DNA of 41,775 nt from Escherichia phage C130_2, in sequence record MH363708; one strand, given 5' to 3'. Positions 1,296 to 41,775 of the stretch are shown here, piece after piece (the first letter of the stretch is position 1; every line of letters begins with the position of its first letter). A program made the position numbers and the translations under genes. Under the pieces are notes generated by a model, which was not told the origin of the DNA, searched no databases, and saw nothing but the letters and a program-made list of their open reading frames with translations.

Positions 1296-1345
1296 CCTCA
1301 TATATTAATCGGGTATCAAAACCCACGTTTAACAAAAAGTGCTAT
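1296..1345 (-). promoter_or_regulatory. Promoter-like bipartite element (inverted-repeat motif plus TATA-rich element) for gene 101-1222
   Basis: Minus strand reads ATAGCACTTTTTGTTAAAC, then about 18 nt, then TTAATATATGAGG. Member of the recurring motif family (see findings). Confidence 0.45.
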
Positions 1346-2124: not shown

Positions 2125-3666
2125 TCATTGTTCAGCGAGCGGAGGCATTGAGGCTTGTTTAGCCGTTAGCGTCGTGCCGCCGTTCAACTCGTCAAAGGCT
2201 CGGATATATTGCTTCTCGATCAGGGTGCGGATTGACCGCAGGATGTTTGACCGGTGCGCCCTCAACTTCTCTTCGCAGATCTTCGACAACTCGCTTTGCA
2301 ACGCCTTCCCGCCGCAGTAGTGGATCAGGATATCCAAAACCTTTTGTTCGGCGTTCGTCGGCTTCTGCTTGCCCTCGGCCCGCTCTTTCTTCTTCTCGCC
2401 CTCCAGGTGCGCTTTTAGCTCTTCTGCCAACTGCTCTTCGGTCACGATCTCGCACTGGTTGAAGTAGCCGCCACAATAGGCCGGATCGATAGGCCGCAGA
2501 CCGGCGAGCGGATTCTCTGGGGGGATTGCGTCGGCAAACTCTCGTTCGTACTTCTCACGCTGGGCGCGTTCAAATTCACCCTCGAAGATCGGCATACTGC
2601 GGCGAGTCAGTCGCAGGAGTTGGGCGATCCCCCCACCACGACGCTTGCCCGCAGCCATGATCACTTTTTCGCTGTCGGTCTTGTCCAGGGTCAGCGAAAA
2701 GGTTTTCCACACTGCGCCCTTTGCAGCACCGCCGCCGCGTGATTCAAGCACCAGTGACGCGGATCGCTCGGCTTCCTTCGATACGTGCGGCACAAAGATC
2801 CCGCAAGCACCCAGCGCCGTTGAAAAGCGCTGCCCGCAAAACGTCACATACTGCTGATCGTCGTTGCTGTTTTCGTCAAGGGCTTTGCCGTTGCGCTGGG
2901 CACTGGATAGGTGAAAACTCTTTGAGTCATAAACAACCATGCAGATCCGGCGATCACCTGCAAACTCTCTGATCTCGCTAATCTGACGTGATGCCGTTTC
3001 ACCCCATTTGGGGCGCGGCAGTTTGATGATCTGACCATCGCGCATGACTTCTTTTTGAATGTCCGTAAGGGCTGCGGGCTTATCGTAGATCAGGACGTGA
3101 TCCAGGATGTTAACGCCCCATTCAAGCTGCCATGCGGAAAGGCAGTTGATCACGGTTTCCGCGTCTTCGGTAAAGAATACGCTGATCCCCTTCTTTACGC
3201 GGAAGGCATCAAGAAACGGCCTTCCGGTTGCCACGCACGCTGCCAGCATCGAAAGCAAAGTTGTTTTGCCCACACCTGGCCCCGCGTTAATCTCGTTGAT
3301 CGTCTTCATGTTGAAGAGGTATTCAACAAAGGGCGTTGGCATTTCCGGCTTCGGGTTTTGGATGTACCCACGGATCACCGCTGGCGCTTCCGGTTTTTCC
3401 GGTGCCGGTTGCGGCTGATCCTGCTGCTGATCGTCCTCAACTTCGACGATCCGATCCAGGTGATCTGACAATTCACGATCAGACGGTGGCGGCGCATCAT
3501 GCCCCACGTATTCTGGCGGCAATTCAGGCATGTTGGCATCGTCCAGCACGCCCCAATTGTCCTGCGCTTGCTCGTCCTCTTCCACGTAATGCGGCGGCAC
3601 GTCTTCTGCGTCAATAGGCGCAAACGGGCGCAAATCTTTTTTAGGGTCGAACTTTTCACCAGCCAT
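2125..3666 (-). CDS. Replication protein with RecA-fold P-loop NTPase domain (helicase or initiator-like)
   Basis: 513 aa; acidic and proline-rich N-terminus, Walker A GPGVGKTT, Walker-B-like hydrophobic strand ending in D/E; AAGGAG RBS; adjacent origin-like region. Confidence 0.55.
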   Translation of the reverse strand: MAGEKFDPKKDLRPFAPIDAEDVPPHYVEEDEQAQDNWGVLDDANMPELPPEYVGHDAPPPSDRELSDHLDRIVEVEDDQQQDQPQPAPEKPEAPAVIRGYIQNPKPEMPTPFVEYLFNMKTINEINAGPGVGKTTLLSMLAACVATGRPFLDAFRVKKGISVFFTEDAETVINCLSAWQLEWGVNILDHVLIYDKPAALTDIQKEVMRDGQIIKLPRPKWGETASRQISEIREFAGDRRICMVVYDSKSFHLSSAQRNGKALDENSNDDQQYVTFCGQRFSTALGACGIFVPHVSKEAERSASLVLESRGGGAAKGAVWKTFSLTLDKTDSEKVIMAAGKRRGGGIAQLLRLTRRSMPIFEGEFERAQREKYEREFADAIPPENPLAGLRPIDPAYCGGYFNQCEIVTEEQLAEELKAHLEGEKKKERAEGKQKPTNAEQKVLDILIHYCGGKALQSELSKICEEKLRAHRSNILRSIRTLIEKQYIRAFDELNGGTTLTAKQASMPPLAEQ

Positions 3667-3698
3667 AAAACTTTACTCCTTAATGAATGTGCCCAGCC

Positions 3699-3727
3699 AT
3701 TATGCGCAGGAGTTATCAATAAATCAA
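3699..3727 (-). promoter_or_regulatory. Sigma70-like promoter for the replication-protein gene
   Basis: Minus strand TTGATT, 17 bp, CATAAT, about 30 nt upstream of the RBS AAGGAG and ATG at 3666. Confidence 0.4.
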
Positions 3728-3757
3728 ATCAAAAAATCAATTGATTCTGACAATCAG

Positions 3758-3806
3758 AAATAGCACTTTTTGCTAAAACAGATTAATACAGACCATATAT
3801 AGTTAA
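3758..3806 (+). promoter_or_regulatory. Promoter-like bipartite element (site A) for the plus-strand early block
   Basis: AAATAGCACTTTTTGCTAAAACA (3758-3780), 18-bp spacer, CATATATAGTT containing a TATAGT -10-like hexamer; inverted-repeat centre about 42 bp upstream of the predicted start site. Confidence 0.5.
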
Positions 3807-3836
3807 CCCATCGAAACGAACAACGAGGCAGACAAA

Positions 3837-4004
3837 ATGAACTTTCCAAAAATCACTTACACCGCCAGCCGTAGCAAAAAATTCATCACCATTGAGCACG
3901 CGCCAAAATACGGCGTAAGCACCAAAGTAACGCGCAACGTTACCGGCAAACGTGAAGCGCGTCAGATTGCAAATGAGCTGGGCGGCATCTGCTGGAACTT
4001 CTAA
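3837..4004 (+). CDS. Hypothetical small basic protein (55 aa)
   Basis: ATG at 3837 with GAGG RBS 9 nt upstream; below the track size cut-off, translated manually (MNFPKITYTASRSKKF...ICWNF). Followed by a GGCCCC-TTCG-GGGGCC hairpin. Confidence 0.4.
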   Translation: MNFPKITYTASRSKKFITIEHAPKYGVSTKVTRNVTGKREARQIANELGGICWNF

Positions 4005-4012
4005 CCAACCAC

Positions 4013-4028
4013 GGCCCCTTCGGGGGCC
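4013..4028 (+). other. GC-clamped UUCG-tetraloop hairpin within the operon
   Basis: GGCCCCTTCGGGGGCC; no U-tract follows, so it is more likely an RNA stability or processing element or a weak attenuator than a full terminator. Confidence 0.35.
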
Positions 4029-4049
4029 ATATCAACTGAGGCAAAGACC

Positions 4050-4739
4050 ATGCAAAACAAAAAAGTATTCGTTAAAGAGGATCGCTATCTGGTGATCAAG
4101 CGCGCTGACCTGGAAGCGGCAACCGCTGCGGGGCTGCTGTCAGTTGGTCAGATTGCGATCCTGAATAAGATCCTTTGCGAGTCCAGCCGGATCCGCAGCA
4201 ACCGTGGCGCACGCCCGCTGCACGGCCTGTTTGTTGAAAATGACTGGCCTGAATACGACGCCGTTTTAAAGATGATTGCAGACCGCGTGGAAGGCGTGGA
4301 CGGCGCTGATAAGCAGGGGCCGATCCTTTACTGCATCGTTGACGCTGACGGCTTGCCATTCATGCAGGAATACTGCGTTGATCTGGATGCAGCCGCATTG
4401 CAAAAAGAAGTGGACGCGATGAACGAGCAAGACGGGATCCCCCCAGGTGGTGACGGCTTCCGCGTCGTGCCCCTTGAGGTGTACACCATTTCAGGCGCGC
4501 AACAACGCTGGGCCTGGTCAACGATCTTTGATCGCTTCCTGCGCACATTCCCTGAGCAAATGAACGTGCCCAACCGCAACGCAACCACGATGATTGATGA
4601 TCTGCTGGGTGAGTACGGCGAGATCCGCGATAATGCCCAGGCGGTGATCGACGAACTCGAAGAGGCGGCGAGCCATTCACCGGACGCCCGCCCAGCGATC
4701 AACAACGCGATCAAACTTCTCCGGGGTCTGCACAAATAG
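4050..4739 (+). CDS. Hypothetical early protein (229 aa), acidic
   Basis: Long ORF with GAGG RBS; no recognisable motif. Confidence 0.6.
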   Translation: MQNKKVFVKEDRYLVIKRADLEAATAAGLLSVGQIAILNKILCESSRIRSNRGARPLHGLFVENDWPEYDAVLKMIADRVEGVDGADKQGPILYCIVDADGLPFMQEYCVDLDAAALQKEVDAMNEQDGIPPGGDGFRVVPLEVYTISGAQQRWAWSTIFDRFLRTFPEQMNVPNRNATTMIDDLLGEYGEIRDNAQAVIDELEEAASHSPDARPAINNAIKLLRGLHK

Positions 4740-4780
4740 CACTTTTTGTTAAAACGATGGGATAATTACTATATATACTT
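4736..4780 (+). promoter_or_regulatory. Promoter-like bipartite element (site B)
   Basis: ATAGCACTTTTTGTTAAAAC, 18 bp, TATATATACT (TATACT -10-like), upstream of gene 4812. Confidence 0.5.
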
Positions 4781-4811
4781 ATCCCATCACTTACGAATGA
4801 GGGCAAACAAA

Positions 4812-5042
4812 ATGGCACGTTCAACGATTCGCGTTACCAACGATCAGGGCTTCGGCGGTTACTATGGCAACCTGCGCAAGTGGGAAGGCGTGAAGGCACG
4901 CGATCTGGCATGGCGTGAAGAGTTGGGCGCACCGGAAGCGGCCCAGGATCCAGACTGGTGGATCGACGAAACCACAACGCGCGGCGAGTACAACGCCCGC
5001 ACCCGTGCCCACGCTGCCAAATGGCGTGACGATTGGGCGTAA
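4812..5042 (+). CDS. Hypothetical small protein (76 aa)
   Basis: ATG at 4812 with GAGGG RBS; followed by hairpin GGTGCCCTTCGGGGCACC (5051-5068). Confidence 0.5.
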   Translation: MARSTIRVTNDQGFGGYYGNLRKWEGVKARDLAWREELGAPEAAQDPDWWIDETTTRGEYNARTRAHAAKWRDDWA

Positions 5043-5083
5043 TCAAACGCGGTGCCCTTCGGGGCACCAATGCTGGGGGATGT

Positions 5084-5428
5084 ATGGAAAAAATCGTTTA
5101 TGTGCTCATGAAGCGCCGGAAATTCTCGCAGGTGTCGCGCAATACCGCAGTTTTCGACGCGAACGGCTGCGCCCTGATCGACAAAATGATCCTGAGCCAT
5201 GCCACGCCGAAGGGCTGGAAAATGAAGCCGGTGTGGTCTTGCCGTGGCGAGCCTACTTTCTACGCTGCCGATTCTTACATGGTGTTTGATACCATCAAGG
5301 ATGCCGCAGAACATCTGCGCAAAGAGCTTGGCGGGGCTTATGCTGCGCTGACTCTGCAAGCGAAGCTGATCGCGGAGTTGTGCGATCAGTGCGATGAAAT
5401 TTACATGAGTGCAAAGGAGCCTGATTAA
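5084..5428 (+). CDS. Hypothetical protein (114 aa)
   Basis: ATG at 5084 inside track ORF 5033-5428; RBS-like GGGGG upstream. Confidence 0.5.
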   Translation: MEKIVYVLMKRRKFSQVSRNTAVFDANGCALIDKMILSHATPKGWKMKPVWSCRGEPTFYAADSYMVFDTIKDAAEHLRKELGGAYAALTLQAKLIAELCDQCDEIYMSAKEPD

Positions 5429-5688
5429 TGGCAAAGGTCAGTCTTATTGGCAACGCGGGCACCGGCAAGAAAACTGCCGTTTATAGTGTGACGCTGGACG
5501 GGTCGCCCCGTGCCTATGTGGTGGCAGGGCGTGAAATTAAGTACATGAGCGAACGACGCGGAAAGGGCGGGCGTATGCTGCGCCGCTGGCTTCCGGTGGT
5601 TCAAACGGCATTGCGTCGCCAGATCTCGGACGCGGTGCGGGAATATCAGATCGAAGAGGTGCGAAAGAGTGAAGAGGCGCAACCCTGA
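5428..5688 (+). CDS. Hypothetical small basic protein (86 aa)
   Basis: TAATG stop-start overlap with the previous gene; AAGGAG 8 nt upstream. Confidence 0.5.
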   Translation: MAKVSLIGNAGTGKKTAVYSVTLDGSPRAYVVAGREIKYMSERRGKGGRMLRRWLPVVQTALRRQISDAVREYQIEEVRKSEEAQP

Positions 5689-5956
5689 TCCGCATTCGTA
5701 CTGGAACCGCCGCCCATACCTTTTGAACAAAAGAAAGTCGCACCCTGGCGCGGTGTTTTGCAGGGTGTCCAGCGTATGCCCTGAAATGAATAAGCGCGGG
5801 CGGTTGTTTAAGCGCTGGATCGCCGCTGGCAGGTTGTACACGATGCACGGGATCTGCCTTCTGAGCGCATCAGGCCGCGTGCCCCATCTGCGCGAAGCGA
5901 TGCAAGAAGGCCGGTTATTTCTCCGCACCGATAAGGGCGGCAAAAACTTATATTAA
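5669..5956 (+). CDS. Hypothetical basic protein (95 aa), GTG start
   Basis: Track ORF starts on GTG at 5669 and overlaps the upstream gene by 20 nt; GAGG upstream. Start uncertain (internal ATG at 5786). Confidence 0.3.
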   Translation: MKRRNPDPHSYWNRRPYLLNKRKSHPGAVFCRVSSVCPEMNKRGRLFKRWIAAGRLYTMHGICLLSASGRVPHLREAMQEGRLFLRTDKGGKNLY

Positions 5957-5974
5957 TCAGTAGGAGCAAAGAAA

Positions 5975-6673
5975 ATGCGTATCACAAAGGCAATGCAGGA
6001 AACAATTTTCGAAAACATTATTGCAGACAATCACCCGCTGCGCGTCCGTGCCGATAAGGTGCGCTGGAACGTCGCGCGCATGGTGGCAGATCTGGTGCTG
6101 GAAGCCCGCGCAAAAAATGGGTTTAAATCCGACGCGGAGATCGGCGCGTTAATTGAAGAGGTGAAGGATCTTAATAAGCGCGGCAAAGATTTTTTGAATG
6201 TCTCAAACTCGTTTAATAAATTCCGTCTGGAAGGTGAGGGGGAAGAAAAATATTATTACGATTATAACCTTTATTTCACGGTTGGCGGGCAGAAGCGCGA
6301 AGCCTCTTTCCTCGGTGAGTTGGACAAGGATCACCGTCTGCGCGCCGGTATCATAACCCCAGGCGTTGGGCATGAGGTGGCGCGGCCTTACCTGGGCATG
6401 TTCACACCAACCGGACGGATCAACGTTCCTGCGGATCATTGGGTCATGGCGCGCTTGCAGGAGTTGGAAAGCGAAGTTGCAGCCATTAACGGTGAGCACA
6501 TAACGTTAAAAAGCACCGTCTTTGCAACCCTGAATAAATTCACTACGGTTAAAAAGCTGGTGGCACACTGGCCCGAAGTGGAAAAATACATTCCGAAGGA
6601 TCAGCCGGTAACGGGCACCGGCATTGCGATCAGCGTCGCGGATCTTAATGCGATGTGCGGCATTCCAAAGTAA
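5975..6673 (+). CDS. Hypothetical protein (232 aa)
   Basis: ATG at 5975 with AGGAG RBS; followed by an intrinsic terminator. Confidence 0.6.
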   Translation: MRITKAMQETIFENIIADNHPLRVRADKVRWNVARMVADLVLEARAKNGFKSDAEIGALIEEVKDLNKRGKDFLNVSNSFNKFRLEGEGEEKYYYDYNLYFTVGGQKREASFLGELDKDHRLRAGIITPGVGHEVARPYLGMFTPTGRINVPADHWVMARLQELESEVAAINGEHITLKSTVFATLNKFTTVKKLVAHWPEVEKYIPKDQPVTGTGIAISVADLNAMCGIPK

Positions 6674-6691
6674 AAATTATGACCGTCACGA

Positions 6692-6716
6692 AACCGCCAT
6701 TTGTGGCGGTTTTTTA
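6692..6716 (+). terminator. Rho-independent terminator
   Basis: CCGCCA-TTTG-TGGCGG stem-loop followed by TTTTTTATTTT. Confidence 0.6.
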
Positions 6717-6761
6717 TTTTGTGCTACCCTCAAGCCGTGATCAACCAGTCGGATTGAGGAA

Positions 6762-7061
6762 ATGAATAAACTTTGGGCATGGTTAAAGACTCGCGGGAGT
6801 AAAGCCCGTATTGTGTTAATCGGTGGGTTGGTAGCCTTCACGGCTTACATTCACTTTTCGGCGGATCGACTGCGTGAGCGTTTAACGATCCTTTGGGGCA
6901 CTTTCACTGCGACGGCTGGCGCGCTTAGTCTTGGGGATGTGGCGATCATTGTCGGTATTCTCTGCACAATCGGATCACTCCTTATTAACTGGTATTACAA
7001 GGCGCGCGATGATAAGCGGAAAGAGGCCATTTTCCGTAAAGGCAGGATCATTGATGAATAG
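6762..7061 (+). CDS. Holin, class II / pinholin-like
   Basis: 99 aa, two hydrophobic helices, highly charged C-terminus ([16 protein letters not shown]) resembling the tail of phage 21 S pinholin; overlaps the endolysin start; GAGGA RBS. Confidence 0.6.
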
Positions 7062-7545
7062 CAAATTGTTTACAAAATTCACGGCGGCACTTGGAGGCGG
7101 GGCGCTGGCTGTCGCCTTCGCTTTGCTGTCCGGTCAAAATGGGTTAGAGGGGCGTGAGTATATCCCTTATCAAGATATTGTGGGGGTCTGGACGGTCTGC
7201 GACGGTCACACCGGCCCCGATATCATCAAGGGCAAGCGGTACACGGATCGGGAGTGTGACGCGCTCACCAAAGCCGATTTAAAACGCATCGCCAGCCAGA
7301 TCGATCCCAATATCAAAGTTAAGTTGCCGGAAACCGTTCACGCGGCGATCTATACCTTCGCCTATAACGTGGGCGCGGGTGCCTTCAACAAGTCAACCAT
7401 GCTGCGCAAAATCAACGCCGGTGACACCATCGGCGCTTGCAATGAGTTGCAACGCTGGGTTTACGCTGGCGGCAAGAAGTGGAAGGGGTTGATCAACCGC
7501 CGTGAGGTTGAAACAACCGTTTGCAAATGGAGCCTTACCAAATGA
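7054..7545 (+). CDS. SAR endolysin (T4-lysozyme / GH24 family, phage 21 R-like)
   Basis: N-terminal signal-anchor-release segment ([18 protein letters not shown]), then [25 protein letters not shown]...[12 protein letters not shown], closely resembling phage 21 R lysozyme as recalled. Confidence 0.85.
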
Positions 7546-8078
7546 CGTGGGCCGCTGTAGTTGCAGCGATCCAACGGTGGTGGAAGCCAGCCGCGCTGCT
7601 GTTGCTGCTGGGTGGATCCTTCGCCGCCGGCACGGCCTGGAATGATCGGGGCTGGCAAGCAAAATGGGCTGATCGGGATGCAAAAGAATCCTCCCAGGAA
7701 ACGAACGCGCAGACCGCAGCCCGCATGATTGAACAAGGGCGAACCATTGCCCGTGAAGAGGCTGTGAAAGATGCACAACAACAAGCGGCAAAAGCTGCTG
7801 CCACTGCTGCTGGCCTGTCTGCCACTGTTAGCAAGTTGCAGCAACAAGCCGGAAAACTCGCAACCCGCCTGGACGCCGCAAAGCACACCGCAGATCTTGC
7901 CGCTGCCGTCGCAAGCAAGACAACCGGCGCAAACGCCGCAATGCTCGCCAACATGCTCGGAAGCCTTGCAGAAGAAGCTAAATATTATGCTGGAAGATCT
8001 GACGAAAGCTATCGGGCCGGAATGACGTGTGAAAGGATTTACGATCAGGTGCGGGAGTCAAACAACAAGGGGCCATGA
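7542..8078 (+). CDS. i-spanin (Rz-like)
   Basis: ATGA overlap with the endolysin stop; N-terminal TM helix then Ala/Gln-rich coiled-coil periplasmic domain; last gene of the lysis cassette. Confidence 0.65.
7771..8025 (+). CDS. o-spanin (Rz1-like lipoprotein) embedded in the +1 frame of the i-spanin gene
   Basis: Lies entirely within 7542-8078 in another frame; signal peptide with lipobox LLASC, proline-rich mature part with Cys residues; the classic lambda/P21 nested arrangement. Confidence 0.6.
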
Positions 8079-8092
8079 TGGCCCCTTTTTTT
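8069..8092. terminator. Bidirectional intrinsic terminator between the lysis cassette and the convergent Ig-like gene
   Basis: GGGGCCATGATGGCCCC followed by T7 on the plus strand and a U-rich stretch on the minus strand. Confidence 0.6.
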
Positions 8093-8888
8093 ATGCTGCT
8101 GGGTTAACTGTGACCGTGCAAACGTTGCTGGTAACGGTTTTCGGCGCGTTGTTGTTCGCGCTGGTAACGGTGCAACGGAAGCGCTTGCCGCTGTCGGATT
8201 CCTGCGGGGTGGCAAATGTCAGCGTTGGGCCGGTAGCGCCAGTGATGCCGGACGCGCCCCCGTTCGTTACGTTCGTCCAGGTGGCGCCGTCCGTGGACTG
8301 CTGCCACTGGTACGTGTAAGGCAACAAGCCGTCAGCCGCCACAACCGCCAGGCTTGCTGAGGTGCCAGCCGTCCAGGTTGCAGTCGCTGCAAGGTTCGTG
8401 GTCAGGCGGATCGCAACTTTGGTGCGCTCGCGCAGTGATTCCACGGTTTGCCCTGCGGAGTCGGTAACACGGCAGAAGTAATCACCGTTGTTGCTCGCTG
8501 CATAAGACGGGATGTTATAGGTATTCTGATCCGATCCGATTGGGTTATCAGTCGAAGAAGCGCGGCGAAACCATGCGTAATGATACGGCGGGATCCCGCC
8601 TTCCATTTCCACGGTGAAAGTTTTGTTTGCGCCCAGCGCCAGATAAGTTGCCGTGGCGTCACTGCCGTTATTGCCTGGCAGGTTGGTTGCGAAGGTGAGC
8701 GGGGGCACCTGGTTTGGATCCAGTTCGATATAAAACATACCAGTTGGATCCAGCGTGAGTGCTGCCTCTTGCTCTGCGGTCAGGTAGATAACGGAAAGTT
8801 GCGGAGTCTGCCCGCCGTCCGGCCCCGCAATGCGGGTGACTTTCCAGCCCTTAAGGGCGCGATCAGGGTGTCGGTGCCAAAAGCCCAT
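8091..8888 (-). CDS. Ig-like (I-set type) tandem-domain protein, possible virion decoration or adhesin
   Basis: 265 aa; two repeats with the Ig signature (PYHYAWF...GDYFCRV and PYTYQWQQSTDG..W...DSGKRFRCTV); AGAGG RBS. Confidence 0.55.
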   Translation of the reverse strand: MGFWHRHPDRALKGWKVTRIAGPDGGQTPQLSVIYLTAEQEAALTLDPTGMFYIELDPNQVPPLTFATNLPGNNGSDATATYLALGANKTFTVEMEGGIPPYHYAWFRRASSTDNPIGSDQNTYNIPSYAASNNGDYFCRVTDSAGQTVESLRERTKVAIRLTTNLAATATWTAGTSASLAVVAADGLLPYTYQWQQSTDGATWTNVTNGGASGITGATGPTLTFATPQESDSGKRFRCTVTSANNNAPKTVTSNVCTVTVNPAA

Positions 8889-10660: not shown

Positions 10661-10710
10661 GGGTTAACTATATATGGTCATTATGCCGGATGTTTAGCAA
10701 AAAGTGCTAT
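10661..10710 (-). promoter_or_regulatory. Promoter-like bipartite element (site C)
   Basis: Minus strand ATAGCACTTTTTGCTAAACA, 18 bp, CATATATAGTTAACCC; the 16-mer CATATATAGTTAACCC is identical to that at site A. Confidence 0.5.
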
Positions 10711-13811: not shown

Positions 13812-13857
13812 ATACTATATATAAAGACTTTGCAAACGCTTTAGCAATTCGTGCTAT
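13812..13857 (-). promoter_or_regulatory. Promoter-like bipartite element (site D)
   Basis: Minus strand ATAGCACGAATTGCTAAAGC, 18 bp, TATATATAGTATG, upstream of dUTPase. Confidence 0.5.
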
Positions 13858-19663: not shown

Positions 19664-20098
19664 ATGAAAATTTGCACAACCTGCAAGGAATCAAAGCCGC
19701 TGACGGAATACCACGCCAACCGGCGAAGCAAAGACGGCAAATCATGCACCTGTAAGGGCTGCAAACGCGATAAAGATCGCAGCCGGTACGAATCCAACGC
19801 CGATGCAGTAAAAGCCCGTGTGCGGGCTTATCAGGCCGCAGAAGGCAAGGCCGTTGCGAATGGCTGCAAAGCTGAGTACAAAAAGCGCCACCCGAAGAAG
19901 GCGCGGGCACATCAACTGGTTAGAAATGCTCTTCGGCGCGGTGAATTAACGCGCCAGCCGTGCGAAGCGTGCGGCACGTCCAACCATGTGATCGCCCATC
20001 ATGACGATTACGATCAGCCGCTGGCGGTGCGCTGGCTGTGCGAAGATCATCACAAAGAATGGCACCGCATCAACGGAGAGGCAAAAAACCCATGTTAA
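19664..20098 (+). CDS. HNH endonuclease
   Basis: CxxC...CEACG...HHDDYDQPL...WLCEDHH arrangement typical of HNH nucleases. Confidence 0.6.
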   Translation: MKICTTCKESKPLTEYHANRRSKDGKSCTCKGCKRDKDRSRYESNADAVKARVRAYQAAEGKAVANGCKAEYKKRHPKKARAHQLVRNALRRGELTRQPCEACGTSNHVIAHHDDYDQPLAVRWLCEDHHKEWHRINGEAKNPC

Positions 20099-20478
20099 AC
20101 ACTCTGAAAGATAAAAACGTTTATTTGGCTGGCCCAATGACGGGGATCCCTGATTACAACCGCCCCGCGTTTATGGTGGCGCATTTCGCGCTGCGCCCGC
20201 ATGTGCTCGGCCTGTTGAATCCATCATTCCTGCCGGTAACGCTGCGTGATCATGCCGCCTATATGGCGATCTCCCTGCCGATGGTTGACGCGGCAGACGC
20301 GGTGGTATTCCTCCCAGGCTGGAAGGCTTCGAAAGGTTGCGCGCTGGAATTGGCCCGCGCCAATGAGCGTGGGATCCCGTGCTTCGAATACCTCAACCCC
20401 AGCAAAAAAGGCCGCTTGCCAAAACTGGTGCCTGTGGGCGATGATAGCGGGGTGAATACACGGGGGAATGAATCATGA
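20092..20478 (+). CDS. Nucleoside 2-deoxyribosyltransferase-like (DUF4406-like) protein
   Basis: ATG at 20092 overlapping the HNH stop; VYLAGPMTG...VVFLPGW...ELARA pattern of a Rossmann-like fold. Confidence 0.45.
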   Translation: MLNTLKDKNVYLAGPMTGIPDYNRPAFMVAHFALRPHVLGLLNPSFLPVTLRDHAAYMAISLPMVDAADAVVFLPGWKASKGCALELARANERGIPCFEYLNPSKKGRLPKLVPVGDDSGVNTRGNES

Positions 20479-20690: not shown

Positions 20691-20704
20691 TCCGGGGTGA
20701 AAAA

Positions 20705-20733
20705 ATAAGGGGCCATTGCGGCCCCTTTTTTTA
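20705..20733. terminator. Bidirectional intrinsic terminator between the plus-strand block and the tailspike gene
   Basis: A-run, GGGGCCATTGCGGCCCC, T7. Confidence 0.65.
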
Positions 20734-22983
20734 TGTTGGCGTGCGGAACGACACAACTTTTGCCGCTGCAAGCTGGGTGCCAGCCGGTGTGGCGGTCTGG
20801 ATAGCGTGAGCAATATCGATCCTGATCTCACTGGTTGGATCGTTCACGTTGACACGATAAGGCCCGCGCGTGATCCACGTAGAAAGAGGATTGCCCCCTT
20901 CACCGGCACCAGGGATCACAATTCGGCACCCTGGCGAAAGTGGCGTTTTGTAGATCCAGACCATATCACCATTATTGCCACCTAGCGGAAAGTTTGAAGC
21001 AATCGAGAAGGATCCCACGGTGGTTGCCTTGATTTTAAATTCATCAATGGCGGGAATGTACGCGCCGGAGGCGGTCACAACGAAGATCTTTCCGTCATTT
21101 CGAACAACGAGATCCCCCTCCATGAACTCACGCCCCGTGGGGAATGCGTTACCATCCCAAATGCCCGTGGCGTTCATATCAGCCGGTGACGGAATGATAT
21201 AAGTGTGATTCGATGCGGTCATTTTTGCACCGATCCCGCCGTCAATCCCCTGGCGCGGATATGGGCGCGCAAAGACGTTGGATCCTACGCTTTCGATATG
21301 CGAATAGGCGCAGCGTGACCAACCTTGATCGCCGTAGCCGTTCACGTCAGTTGCGTTAACGTTGACCATTCGCAAGATGGTGCGCCCCGTGGCAAGGTAG
21401 CCGTTTGAAGCTGTGCCGCCCGATGAATCATCACCCACGCAATCAAAGATCCGGCAATGAACATTGCTCATGTTCAATTCAGTTGCCACACCGAAAAGCG
21501 AGAATTTCGCCACGTTCACATTTTCAATGTAATACGTGTTAGTTGCCCCTGCCTTCTCGGTGCCGATACCGGCATAAAAGCGCCCTGTTTTACTGTATAC
21601 GTTGCGGATCGCCATATCGTGACAAGGGCCGCGCGCGCCAACGCCAGCATTTGTGCCCCATTCAAGCATAATAACGCGCACATCCTGGGCAAGCGTGCTG
21701 CCGGTAACTACCGGTTCACCGTAAACCCCATCAATGGAGCAACGGCGGGAGCCGTAGAAAAGCACCGTCGCAACCGTCAGGCCGGAACCGTTCGAAACGT
21801 TCTGGTTGGGGTCGCCGTGGATGTTTTCAACAACGGAATCACGAACCATTTCGAAGTGTACGATCTGACGCACTTTGTTTGCGTAAACGTTACGGATCGT
21901 AATGTTTTTGGCAAAGTTTGCGTCAGGTGTATCAATGCCATAAGGGCTTTGACCTGCAACCCCAATCCCAATACCCCAGTTTGACGGCGTGATCGGGGCT
22001 TGGCCTGTTGAGTCGATGTTATCAAGGAAAATGCCGTCAATCAGGCAACCATTATCATAATGGCGCTGTACTACGTTTAACTCGATCCCGTCGCCGCCCA
22101 TATCGTAAAACGACAAATTGCGGTAGACGCCGGACACAACCGTTGATCCCGTGCCTTGCTGGAGGATGCCGTAAAGGCCATTCCGAAACTCGGAATCGCT
22201 GACCTCAATAGTGCTTCCGTCCACTGGCACACCCTGCATCATGATTGATGCAACCTTGCTGGTTGTCGGCTTACCGTCAAACATGCAATCGCGGATCCTT
22301 ACGTCGCCGCCGTAGTGCATGATTCGCAGGTTGTTAATCACTGCACCTTCGATCAGGGTGTCAGTCAGGCGAAAATCTGCGGTGCCCTTCCAGGTTCCCC
22401 CCATGATGGTGATCCCATTCGGGTTGACCGTGCTTTCAAGCGTGCCAGACCAACCATAAGCGTTGACGATCTTCCCGTTCGCTTTGGCGTAGTCAAACAT
22501 TGCCTGAATCGCCTGTGAAACGCTGGTGTACTCTTCGCGGCCCACAAAATCAAACGGCGTCACAAAGCCTTGCAGTTTGGTTTTTAGCGTGCCTTCTGGC
22601 GTGCCCACGTATTCCCAGCCGGTAGACGATCCGATCACCTTCCACATCTGCGCCGCGTCATATTCCAGAAGGTTATCAAAGGAATATTGCAGCACGTCAT
22701 TGCGATCATAAACGTCCATGCTTGATGCGGTCTGCGTCACAAAGCGCCCAACAATCCCGTTATATTCGGGATAGCCGCTCTGGTTGATTTTGATCGGCTG
22801 CGGCACCGGCACCAGCGTTAGATCCTCATTTTCCAGGTACACTTGCACCTGATTTGCCGGATCCTTCGGGTTGGTGTCGGGCTTGCCAATATAGATATCA
22901 CCGCCGCTGATAGGCGCAAACTTGCCAACCTGAATAAACGGGCTGGACGGCATACGCACGGCAGAAAAAACAATATCGCTCAT
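20731..22983 (-). CDS. Tailspike protein (P22-like N-terminal head-binding domain, beta-helix receptor-binding domain)
   Basis: ATG at 22983 with GAGG RBS; N-terminus GDIYIGKPDTNPKDPANQVQVYLENED...PIKINQSG..YNG matches the P22 tailspike head-binding domain as recalled; rest is Gly/Asn/Val-rich, consistent with a parallel beta-helix. Confidence 0.85.
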   Translation of the reverse strand: MSDIVFSAVRMPSSPFIQVGKFAPISGGDIYIGKPDTNPKDPANQVQVYLENEDLTLVPVPQPIKINQSGYPEYNGIVGRFVTQTASSMDVYDRNDVLQYSFDNLLEYDAAQMWKVIGSSTGWEYVGTPEGTLKTKLQGFVTPFDFVGREEYTSVSQAIQAMFDYAKANGKIVNAYGWSGTLESTVNPNGITIMGGTWKGTADFRLTDTLIEGAVINNLRIMHYGGDVRIRDCMFDGKPTTSKVASIMMQGVPVDGSTIEVSDSEFRNGLYGILQQGTGSTVVSGVYRNLSFYDMGGDGIELNVVQRHYDNGCLIDGIFLDNIDSTGQAPITPSNWGIGIGVAGQSPYGIDTPDANFAKNITIRNVYANKVRQIVHFEMVRDSVVENIHGDPNQNVSNGSGLTVATVLFYGSRRCSIDGVYGEPVVTGSTLAQDVRVIMLEWGTNAGVGARGPCHDMAIRNVYSKTGRFYAGIGTEKAGATNTYYIENVNVAKFSLFGVATELNMSNVHCRIFDCVGDDSSGGTASNGYLATGRTILRMVNVNATDVNGYGDQGWSRCAYSHIESVGSNVFARPYPRQGIDGGIGAKMTASNHTYIIPSPADMNATGIWDGNAFPTGREFMEGDLVVRNDGKIFVVTASGAYIPAIDEFKIKATTVGSFSIASNFPLGGNNGDMVWIYKTPLSPGCRIVIPGAGEGGNPLSTWITRGPYRVNVNDPTSEIRIDIAHAIQTATPAGTQLAAAKVVSFRTPT

Positions 22984-23035
22984 TGTTGGTGCCTCGTTGT
23001 TGTATTCAGGCTTTAGTGTATAGACGTTCAGGAAA

Positions 23036-23057
23036 TTAAAAAAGGGGCCGAAGCCCC
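23036..23057 (-). terminator. Intrinsic terminator (UUCG hairpin plus U-run) upstream of tailspike
   Basis: Minus strand GGGGC-TTCG-GCCCC followed by TTTTTTT; the 20-mer is identical to the terminator at 31301-31320. Confidence 0.6.
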
Positions 23058-23062
23058 TTTGG

Positions 23063-31283: not shown

Positions 31284-31300
31284 GGTGAGATCCTCATATG

Positions 31301-31320
31301 AAAAAAGGGGCCGAAGCCCC
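31301..31320 (-). terminator. Intrinsic terminator after the coat gene
   Basis: Minus strand GGGGC-TTCG-GCCCC followed by TTTTTT; identical to 23036-23057. Confidence 0.65.
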
Positions 31321-31353
31321 TTATTTATACACTTTTCAATCAGGTTGCGCCAG

Positions 31354-34774: not shown

Positions 34775-34813
34775 GCCCGCCGAAGCGGGCTTGTCTTTAG
34801 CAAAAAGTGCTAT
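34775..34813 (-). promoter_or_regulatory. Inverted-repeat motif copy (site E) plus UUCG hairpin at the portal / insert junction
   Basis: Minus strand ATAGCACTTTTTGCTAAAG overlapping the portal stop codon, followed by GCCCGC-TTCG-GCGGGC; no TATATAG element here. Confidence 0.4.
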
Positions 34814-37098: not shown

Positions 37099-37143
37099 AT
37101 AGCACAAATTGCTAAAACATTTCACGGATTAATGATTATAGTA
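37099..37143 (+). promoter_or_regulatory. Promoter-like bipartite element (site G) driving a plus-strand ORF inside the late region
   Basis: ATAGCACAAATTGCTAAAACA, 18-bp spacer, then TGATTATAGTA (contains the TATAGT hexamer). Confidence 0.45.
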
Positions 37144-41139: not shown

Positions 41140-41496
41140 TTAACGCCCCTGTGCTGCGTTGCCAACGCTTCTGACGGCTTCCGCATAGCTGCGTTTGGCG
41201 ATTGCCTCGGCCTCTTTGCGGGAGTACCCACGGCGCATAAGTGACGCCGTACCTTTGGCGATCAGACGCGCCTTTTTCTCTTTGCGTGTCTCGCCCTCTT
41301 TGCGGTCTGGCACGTCAGGCGGTGTGCCCATCATGGCACGCTGCATGGCTGCGCGTGGCTTCACAATACCGGCGTTGATCGCCTCCTGCCGGATGTTATC
41401 GGCGCGCATCTTCTGGATCGGCTCTGGTATCACTTCGGCTTTTTGTTTCGAACTGATCACCATGTTAACCAATGCGCTGATAATCCCTCGTTTCAT
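41140..41496 (-). CDS. Hypothetical basic protein (118 aa), first gene after the terminator hairpins
   Basis: ATG at 41496 preceded by TGAGG 9 nt upstream; the track ORF extends further but this is the first ATG with an RBS. The window begins at the reverse complement of its first two codons (ATGAAA). Confidence 0.5.
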   Translation of the reverse strand: MKRGIISALVNMVISSKQKAEVIPEPIQKMRADNIRQEAINAGIVKPRAAMQRAMMGTPPDVPDRKEGETRKEKKARLIAKGTASLMRRGYSRKEAEAIAKRSYAEAVRSVGNAAQGR

Positions 41497-41775
41497 CGTC
41501 TTTGCCTCATTGTTTCGTGAATGTGTGGTGAGCGTACAACAAAGGGGCCGCAGCCGCAAGCCCCTTGATATCCTCCCAGCGAGGCTGGGCTTAAATTGCC
41601 CTGTCGCTGCTCTTCGCCAGGTGTCCACCTTTGCCGATCCAGGCGCTGGCGCGCTGGTATTCGCTGGCGATCAACTCGTCGGTAACATACAGCCCGCCCC
41701 GATGATATGCCGCGTTAAACTCCGGCGATTCGTTGTAACCACGGCTCATAGCGTCTGCTATGGCTTCCAGCGCCT
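41491..41775. repeat. Terminal exact repeat, right copy (identical to 1-285)
   Basis: Same 285 bp as the window start; duplicates the 3' end of the 101-1222 gene, its terminator hairpins and the first two codons of the 41140-41496 gene. Confidence 0.9.

Follow-up and report, generated by a model that had tools for sequence, protein, structure and literature searches.

The early region of T5 and the variable regions of T4-like phages are clusters of small genes of unknown function that carry their own promoters and vary between close relatives. In lambda and P22, the stretch that follows N is occupied by exclusion and restriction-alleviation genes of the ral and sieB type. The element described here is a block of seven small plus-strand genes, gp05 to gp11, in Escherichia phage C130_2 (sequence record MH363708; genus Hungariovirus, formerly Giessenvirus). 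It lies at positions 3837-6673 of the analysed window, which is the whole stretch of 41,775 nucleotides and is entered in IMG/VR as UViG 2974611538_000001. The genes are already annotated in the public genome, and the block is an ordinary kind of feature, namely a plastic early/accessory region with one member of a named family. The reading that we favour, with a probability of roughly 55%, is that gp05-gp11 form a plastic accessory block of two units, whose products would be made before the late genes and would be directed at the host or at nucleic acid, and in which gp11 would be a binding or regulatory protein.

A similar layout is found in the phages Skarpretter (gp46-gp54) and sortkaff (gp14-gp20), where a minus-strand AAA_25 gene, seven to nine small plus-strand genes, a terminator and a lysis cassette follow one another as they do in C130_2. 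Skarpretter shares gp07 (its gp50), gp09 (its gp52) and a promoter-like motif with C130_2, and sortkaff shares gp07 (its gp17) and gp08 (its gp18). Most members nevertheless differ, and neither phage has Nmad5, gp05, gp06 or gp10. Since all of the genes there are annotated as hypothetical, the comparison adds no function. More has been described for the Nmad5 family, to which the last gene of the block belongs. In Dhillonvirus, nmad5 can be deleted, and its cloning in E. coli failed owing to toxicity (PMC11846954). A K216E/K296E change in Dhillonvirus Nmad5 escapes the host defence Tmn, whereas deletion of nmad5 does not (PMC11846954). In M6-like phages, Nmad5 is located inside a thymidine-hypermodification cassette (PMC9476957).

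The initial annotation had placed seven plus-strand open reading frames (ORFs) at 3837-6673, and this was borne out. At these coordinates the ORFs encode 55-232 amino acids (aa), and an exact look-up of their translations returned HOU22_gp05-gp11 (YP_009812552-58) of Escherichia phage C130_2, all of which are labelled hypothetical in RefSeq. A Shine-Dalgarno (SD)-like sequence lies 6-10 nt upstream of every one of the seven, and the GC content at third codon positions (GC3) is elevated throughout (0.59-0.70). The ORFs were further compared with those of three close relatives, namely L007 (from an Enterobacter hormaechei assembly), L008 (from a metagenome) and STP9 (an unannotated Stutzerimonas phage). 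Substitutions were mainly synonymous or at the third codon position in all seven genes. The same annotation had noted that a lack of conservation in relatives would speak against the ORFs. The copies in the relatives instead appeared to be under purifying selection, with ratios of non-synonymous to synonymous change (pN/pS) of 0.0-0.3; the sole exception was gp09 against STP9 (0.42), a comparison in which the 3' end could not be aligned. In addition, gp07 and gp09 occur in every C130_2-like relative. The seven ORFs are genuine genes.

It is highly improbable that intergenic or regulatory DNA has been mistaken here for genes, and the ORF most open to such doubt is gp10, with its GTG start. One gene caller did leave the gp10 slot uncalled in L007 and in two further contigs (L030 and L034), and gp10 has no family match anywhere. 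Its differences from L007, however, consist of 12 synonymous and 3 non-synonymous changes, and its GC3 is 0.70. In STP9 and at least seven other contigs, the slot holds a protein of 98/99 aa with 31% identity to gp10 (pairwise E=1e-7), despite DNA that is unalignable there, and in at least seven contigs it is a called gene. An Rfam scan of 3500-7000 likewise detected zero RNA families.

Two of the starts were revised. The third and fourth ORFs originally spanned 4746-5042 and 5033-5428. The start of gp07 is most likely ATG 4812, as called in relatives, which gives 76 aa (RefSeq has 81 aa). The start of gp08 is most likely ATG 5084 (114 aa), because the longer ORF would cross a hairpin at 5050-5069. 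None of the seven proteins has a hydrophobic or membrane segment, and the isoelectric point (pI) exceeds 10 for gp05, gp09 and gp10.

The block is a bounded unit, separate from the neighbouring lysis cassette (holin at 6762-7061, endolysin, Rz/Rz1), as follows from the repeats that head it, its hairpins and the conserved terminator that closes it. Two copies of a promoter-like direct repeat (family D2) lie upstream of gp05 (3755-3812, plus strand; ATAGCACTTTTTGCTAAAAC ... CATATATAGTT) and upstream of gp07 (4731-4788, plus strand). The block had been described as a single operon. Its plus-strand arrangement stands, but with two repeat copies a division into two promoter-headed units fits better. 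These would be gp05-gp06 and gp07-gp11, reading rightwards from the replication-type AAA_25 gene and ending at the intrinsic terminator just before the holin-endolysin-spanin cassette.

The repeat belongs to a wider set of sites. The motif ATAGCAC-N3-TTG(C/T)TAAA is present in seven copies in the genome, against 0.01 expected, at 1326-1345 (-), 3760-3779 (+), 4736-4755 (+), 10691-10710 (-), 13838-13857 (-), 34794-34813 (-) and 37099-37118 (+). Outside the block, the copy at 13838 is located upstream of the dUTPase-Dam operon, that at 10691 upstream of a minus-strand group of small genes, and that at 1326 ahead of a 373-aa gene at 101-1222. The copy at 37099 precedes small plus-strand ORFs between the portal and terminase genes, and the copy at 34794 is followed by a hairpin. 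In four copies, TTG(C/T)TA is separated by 18 nt from (C/T)ATATA, which overlaps a conserved TATAGT; TATAGT itself is found ~22 nt downstream of most copies. The motif occurs at the same places in relatives, and Skarpretter has five copies, three of them inside the syntenic block; it was not found in sortkaff. From its repetition and position, the motif probably serves C130_2 as a promoter or operator of its own.

The terminator that closes the block (6681-6721, plus strand) has the stem AACCGCC/GGCGGTT followed by a T-run and precedes the holin gene. Relatives, Skarpretter and sortkaff, three genera in all, likewise have a terminator at this position, with differing sequences. It is followed, within 6674-6765, by a second hairpin in which CCCTCAA pairs with the holin SD sequence TTGAGG, and this is likewise present in C130_2-like genomes, Skarpretter and sortkaff. 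As Skarpretter and sortkaff keep the layout with different sequences, the terminator and SD hairpin together suggest a conserved element that controls lysis-gene expression. A half-site resembling the motif, GTGCTAC, is located between the two hairpins.

These elements bear on a different explanation, which we consider unlikely, in which the block is regulatory. Under it, gp09, gp10 or gp05 would bind the ATAGCAC...TTGCTAAA element, or the terminator and SD hairpin before the holin gene, and exert a delayed-early control of late or lysis genes in the manner of the nin-Q region in lambdoid phages. The motif arms TAGCA and TGCTA form an inverted repeat whose arms are constant and whose spacer varies, as in an operator, and the block lies directly upstream of a terminator and hairpin conserved across three genera. 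Three of its proteins have the basic pI noted above, and gp09 is kept in the motif-bearing Skarpretter, while sortkaff yielded neither gp09 nor the motif. This link between gp09 and the motif nevertheless spans three lineages only, and C130_2 and Skarpretter share many other genes. Moreover, no helix-turn-helix or other DNA-binding domain was detected in the seven proteins with Pfam, NCBIfam and PHROGs; L008 lacks gp10 yet keeps both motif and terminator; and Skarpretter and sortkaff are without Nmad5, whose gene is the closest to the terminator. A role for Nmad5 as a Q-like antiterminator, considered for its place before the terminator, was also rejected, as the family is absent from these two terminator-keeping phages and is located elsewhere in other phages.

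Accessory regions can be recognised by changes in gene content between genomes that are otherwise nearly identical. The nearest record in the annotated collection is STP9, with 93% nucleotide identity over 84% of the first 25 kb, and Skarpretter is far more distant. Among C130_2-like genomes, the flanks of the block are 95-97% identical, and its content changes by whole genes. Amid these flanks, gp05/gp06, gp08, gp10 and the centre of gp11 are each absent, replaced or unalignable. The STP9 block consists of gp07, gp09, an alternative gp10 allele and gp11, without gp05 and gp06. L007 and L030 lack gp08 (the L034 contig ends after gp09). In L008, a 60-aa gene stands in place of gp06, gp08 is retained and the gp10 slot is empty. 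Seven or more other contigs have the alternative gp10 allele and, between gp06 and gp07, an additional gene of 138 aa (phrog_25918). This extra gene, of a function-unknown family, lies at 3512-3928 of contig L026 and is absent from the window. No other part of the genome is as plastic as the block among near-identical relatives. By comparison, gp07 and gp09 are always present, and no other member of the block has a counterpart in Skarpretter.

Exchange also reaches inside a gene. gp11 (5975-6673, plus strand; 232 aa) is a mosaic in which nucleotides 6061-6481 cannot be aligned with relatives that are ~96% identical upstream and 82-84% identical downstream. At the protein level, identity between relatives falls to 15-50% in the centre and is 85-95% at the ends, a pattern that indicates allelic replacement of the centre within the gene. 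The alleles of gp10 and gp11 are found in all combinations; they had been considered as a cognate pair, which was rejected as they reassort among relatives.

This pattern allows a more specific reading, which we put forward only tentatively, in which the interval from the 3' end of gp09 to the centre of gp11 (~5667-6481) is an arms-race locus. It is suggested by gp10 alleles that share 31% identity, by the replacement of the central 120 residues of Nmad5 amid ~96% identity, and by their free reassortment. Nmad5 would then be a modular early protein whose variable centre engages, or is sensed by, host immunity such as Tmn, and one or more of gp05-gp10, including the 'DWPEY' domain of gp06, would be undescribed anti-defence or takeover proteins.

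Membership of gp11 in the Nmad5 family was shown by a full-length match to PF18757 (102.8 bits against a cut-off of 27, E=3e-29), in which residues 1-231 cover model positions 1-206 of 206. gp11 also matches phrog_1965 (E=2e-32), PF18757 is the precomputed Pfam domain for all gp11 homologues, and an identical Enterobacter protein is named 'Nmad5 family putative nucleotide modification protein' by NCBI. In an alignment of 82 sequences, the positions conserved in at least 90% are R2, T4, T191, K193, L195, W199, P200, E201, L224, N225, G229 and P231, all of which are present in gp11. Such positions are scarce, and most of them are of a structural kind (G, P, W, L and two K). The confident AlphaFold2 (AF2) model of gp11 (per-residue confidence score, pLDDT, 86.8) shows a helical rod and a small beta-meander, and no enzyme-like relative of it was found in the Protein Data Bank (PDB). 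Relatives were detected by tblastn in 344 phage records. They match at full length (~26%) in Dhillonviruses and mainly over the C-terminal third in lambdoid, Stx, Pseudomonas, Vibrio and Bordetella phages. The location of the gene differs between phages: it directly follows N in the PL operon of HK542 (gp33), lies between helicase and resolvase in ep3, and is on the opposite strand within the head-gene module in Dhillonvirus.

The name of the family raises the question of whether gp11, possibly with small neighbours, is a DNA-modification module that covalently modifies phage DNA or nucleotides against restriction. We regard this as decidedly unlikely. The family owes its name to an association with base-modification genes, and its place in the M6-like cassette (PMC9476957) and the NCBI name of the identical protein agree with such a role. 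C130_2 itself has genes for Dam-type methylases, for a dUTPase and for a DUF4406 protein. A Pfam scan that covered 20 of the window's non-structural proteins, leaving aside the structural genes and a few small ORFs, identified AAA_25, DUF3268, Dam, dUTPase, a primase Zn-ribbon, helicase, VRR-NUC, PDDEXK, ERF, SSB and DUF4406, but no hydroxymethylase, kinase, aGPT-Pplase, radical-SAM or PLP enzyme. The M6-like Pseudomonas phages have a member of the same Pfam family, and Pseudomonas records are among the tblastn matches, mainly in the C-terminal third; theirs, however, has genes for aGPT-Pplase, nucleotide kinase, radical-SAM and PLP enzymes on its flanks (PMC9476957), and the scanned genes here include no such enzyme. 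Nmad5 is also common without such partners in lambdoid prophages and Dhillonviruses, and both the confidently modelled fold without an enzyme-like PDB relative and the scarcity of conserved, mostly structural positions argue against an enzyme. Since no base-hypermodification pathway was found among the scanned genes, gp11 is probably not a modification enzyme and would instead bind to, or regulate, DNA or a host factor.

The comparison with Dhillonvirus is closer. gp11 aligns end to end with Nmad5 of Dhillonvirus SM_S22 and SM_A8 at 26-28% identity, with a shared N-terminal MR(I/L)TK and a C-terminal T-x-KKL-x-x-WPE ... LN-x-(I/M)CG(I/L)P. Lysine K296 of SM_S22 CDS6 aligns with K194 of gp11, within a near-invariant T-V-K-K-L motif. 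In C130_2 as in Dhillonvirus, the gene is stand-alone, without hypermodification partners. The two differ in that gp11 is the last gene of the small block before the lysis genes whereas the Dhillonvirus copy is in the head module on the opposite strand, and in that the central 120 residues are unrelated in sequence. By analogy with the Dhillonvirus protein, gp11 would probably be a determinant of sensitivity to host defences such as Tmn. The Tmn experiments concern Dhillonvirus only, and C130_2 differs from it in having no detectable anti-Tmn homologue. Such a homologue was sought because one has been reported in Skarprettervirus (PMC11846954). The query was SM_S22 CDS0035 (154 aa), taken to be the published ORF35 from the gene numbering and from the Skarpretter match. 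It recovered Skarpretter gp38 (tblastn E=7.5e-5), which corresponds to the single match outside Dhillonvirus given in that paper. That gp38 lies at 6213-6752 of the Skarpretter genome in a minus-strand group of small genes and not in the syntenic block, and Skarpretter is without Nmad5. The proposal that the block encodes an anti-Tmn homologue was thus rejected.

For the remaining genes, family assignments were sparse. The initial annotation had found no domain that it could place. This gave way for gp11, with its full-length Nmad5 match, and in part for gp06, whose N-terminal domain is widespread but outside Pfam; it stands for the others, which have no domain match. Pfam, NCBIfam and PADLOC returned nothing for six of the seven proteins. 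In PHROGs, gp08, gp09 and gp10 had no match, and gp05, gp06, gp07 and gp11 matched function-unknown families only. Sequence and profile searches of the PDB gave coiled-coil noise, and no member matched a solved structure.

The first unit opens with gp05 (3837-4004, plus strand; 55 aa, pI 10.2, phrog_20574). An 85% identical protein is encoded in Kyungwonvirus/Cronobacter phages, amid small function-unknown genes adjoining polynucleotide kinase. Downstream of gp05 is a GC-rich UUCG hairpin (4013-4028, plus strand; -14.4 kcal/mol, z = -2.5) that has no T-run and lies within a stretch 82% identical in nucleotides to the Cronobacter phages. The second gene, gp06 (4050-4739, plus strand; 229 aa), combines a conserved N-terminal domain of ~80 aa with an acidic C-terminal part. 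The domain carries the motif VVE.DWPEYE.VW, and its invariant or near-invariant positions are E10, R12, Y13, V15, K17, D20, R49, E63, D65, W66, P67, E68, Y69 and R79. An exhaustive HMMER search matched 243 cluster representatives, and the domain was found in 383 phage records, either as a stand-alone protein of 75-100 aa or joined to varied C-termini. The acidic C-terminal 140 residues of gp06 are restricted to close relatives. The AF2 model has pLDDT >90 at residues 1-85 and low values elsewhere. Neither a Pfam family nor a solved relative was found for the domain. A BFVD search with gp06 returned the protein itself (the C130_2 entry A0A384ZRN8, 100% identity), short stand-alone copies of the domain and one entry mislabelled 'scaffolding protein'. 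The domain adjoins a Ser/Thr phosphatase gene in T5-like phages and is also present in T4-like phages; context look-ups of the stand-alone homologues gave short contigs only.

In the second unit, gp07 (4812-5042, plus strand; 76 aa by the preferred start) is a core member of the block, with 98-100% identity in C130_2-like genomes, 68% in Skarpretter gp50 and 39% in sortkaff gp17, and a weak match to phrog_33147 (E=0.007). The GC-rich UUCG hairpin downstream of it (5050-5069, plus strand) marks the left junction of the gp08 cassette. gp08 (5084-5428, plus strand; 114 aa) is a single-gene cassette that is present or absent depending on the relative. Its identity is 95% to the L008 copy and 45% to sortkaff gp18; STP9, L007, L026 and L030 lack it, with clean junctions between the hairpin and the gp09 start codon. 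Its CxxC was considered as a zinc site and rejected, as the cysteines are not kept in sortkaff gp18.

gp09 (5428-5688, plus strand; 86 aa, pI 10.3), the other core member, is 44% identical to Skarpretter gp52. A homologue is labelled P-loop NTPase in one annotation of a metagenome-assembled genome. This label is unsupported, since conservation does not extend to the P-loop-like GTGKKT: where gp09 has GNAGTGKKT, Skarpretter gp52 has GWAGPKKNK. Nor does gp09 agree with the P-loop pattern (GxxxxGK[ST] in a fold of sufficient size), being 86 aa long and without a Pfam or NCBIfam match. gp10 (5669-5956, plus strand; 95 aa, pI 11.2) occupies a slot that holds one of two alleles or is empty, as in L008.

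What the products do can be approached from the place of their genes. The initial annotation had assigned the block to a position typical of takeover or anti-defence genes, and this claim is upheld in part. The block is non-structural, headed by promoter-like elements, closed by a terminator and located in the most plastic part of the genome, and homologues of its members are found in early regions. Those of gp05, of the gp06 N-terminal domain and of gp11 occur in the early regions of T5-like, T4-like, Drexlerviridae and lambdoid phages, a distribution that fits accessory early genes. In particular, the gp06 domain sits in exactly the plastic regions of T5- and T4-like phages introduced above; early timing has been measured for T4 and T5, whereas for the C130_2 block it is proposed. 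The part of the claim that was not upheld concerns anti-defence itself, as none of the seven matches any known anti-defence protein that was tested and Nmad5 is described in the literature as a protein to which a defence system responds.

The lambdoid PL operon offers another point of comparison. In HK542, the Nmad5 gene directly after N occupies an early, non-essential and variable slot like the block, namely the ral/sieB region. HK542 is, however, a temperate phage with N-dependent antitermination, and it has a counterpart for gp11 only and none for gp05-gp10. The same comparison raises the idea that the block guards the infected cell from other phages by competition or superinfection exclusion, and not against host immunity. 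We give this little credence. The cassette-like variability would be the same, and the HK542 gene is just downstream of N in a stretch that holds ral/sieB-type genes in lambda and P22. On the other hand, many exclusion proteins have a membrane segment and none of the seven does, PHROGs detected no homology to known exclusion proteins, and the phage is lytic according to the literature, with lytic phages gaining less from exclusion.

We therefore return to the reading of gp05-gp11 as an accessory block. Its products would be small, soluble and non-structural, would be made before the late genes, and would act on the host or on nucleic acid (in takeover, counter-defence or phage competition) and not in replication or assembly. 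An action of this kind is proposed as the reason for the swapping of cassettes within the lineage.

Several observations weigh against this reading. The term 'early' draws on position and on a motif that a generic sigma-70 scan did not call. The motif also adjoins structural genes (34794, minus strand) and may therefore not mark a temporal class. The conservation of gp07 and gp09 across genera appears to fit a housekeeping or regulatory role better than an arms race. With regard to defence, no member matched PADLOC-DB at E<=0.1, a collection of defence and not anti-defence proteins, and the anti-Tmn query gave no match in the window or in STP9, L007 or L008 with a threshold as loose as E<=10. 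The Dhillonvirus work (PMC11846954), which is the sole experimental link, presents Nmad5 as sensed by the defence and not as an inhibitor of it. Even there the role of Nmad5 is ambiguous, because its deletion left Tmn sensitivity intact.

Other features of the window were also noted. Positions 1-285 and 41491-41775 are identical over 285 nt, which represents either terminal redundancy or circular-assembly overlap. The DUF4406 protein is encoded at 20038-20478 (plus strand), at the end of the recombination operon, and Skarpretter has an XRE-type regulator at the corresponding place. Within the Rz-like spanin gene (7521-8078, plus strand), an ORF at 7771-8025 is embedded in another frame, and its product is lipoprotein-like, as in an Rz1 arrangement. 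GC-rich hairpins with T-runs (AAGGGGCC...GGCCCCTTTTTTT) are repeated at 8054-8098 and 20694-20738 and at 23035-23059 and 31298-31322. They lie where convergent gene blocks end and probably terminate transcription in both directions. L007 is a near-complete C130_2-like genome that forms its own 41,553-bp contig (JBPXFR010000023) in the Enterobacter hormaechei assembly GCA_051847635.1. As it is a separate contig in a bacterial assembly, this suggests that the C130_2 group also infects, or is carried by, Enterobacter.

Nmad5 is widespread in coliphages and prophages, and the locus adds a second context for the family, one where the protein is stand-alone and has a variable centre between constant ends. 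The sole phenotype attributed to the family so far is the control of Tmn sensitivity. If the arms-race reading is true, Nmad5, whose N-terminus and C-terminal KKL-WPE motif are constant, would be no base-modifying enzyme. The block also draws attention to the uncharacterised ~80-aa domain of gp06 and its spread over 383 phage records, those of T5-like and T4-like phages included. As seven soluble, naturally variable proteins of a culturable E. coli/Shigella phage, the products can easily be tested for toxicity and counter-defence. Of the leads, two stand out as most useful, namely the differences between alleles of gp10 and of the Nmad5 centre, and the widespread, uncharacterised domain of gp06.

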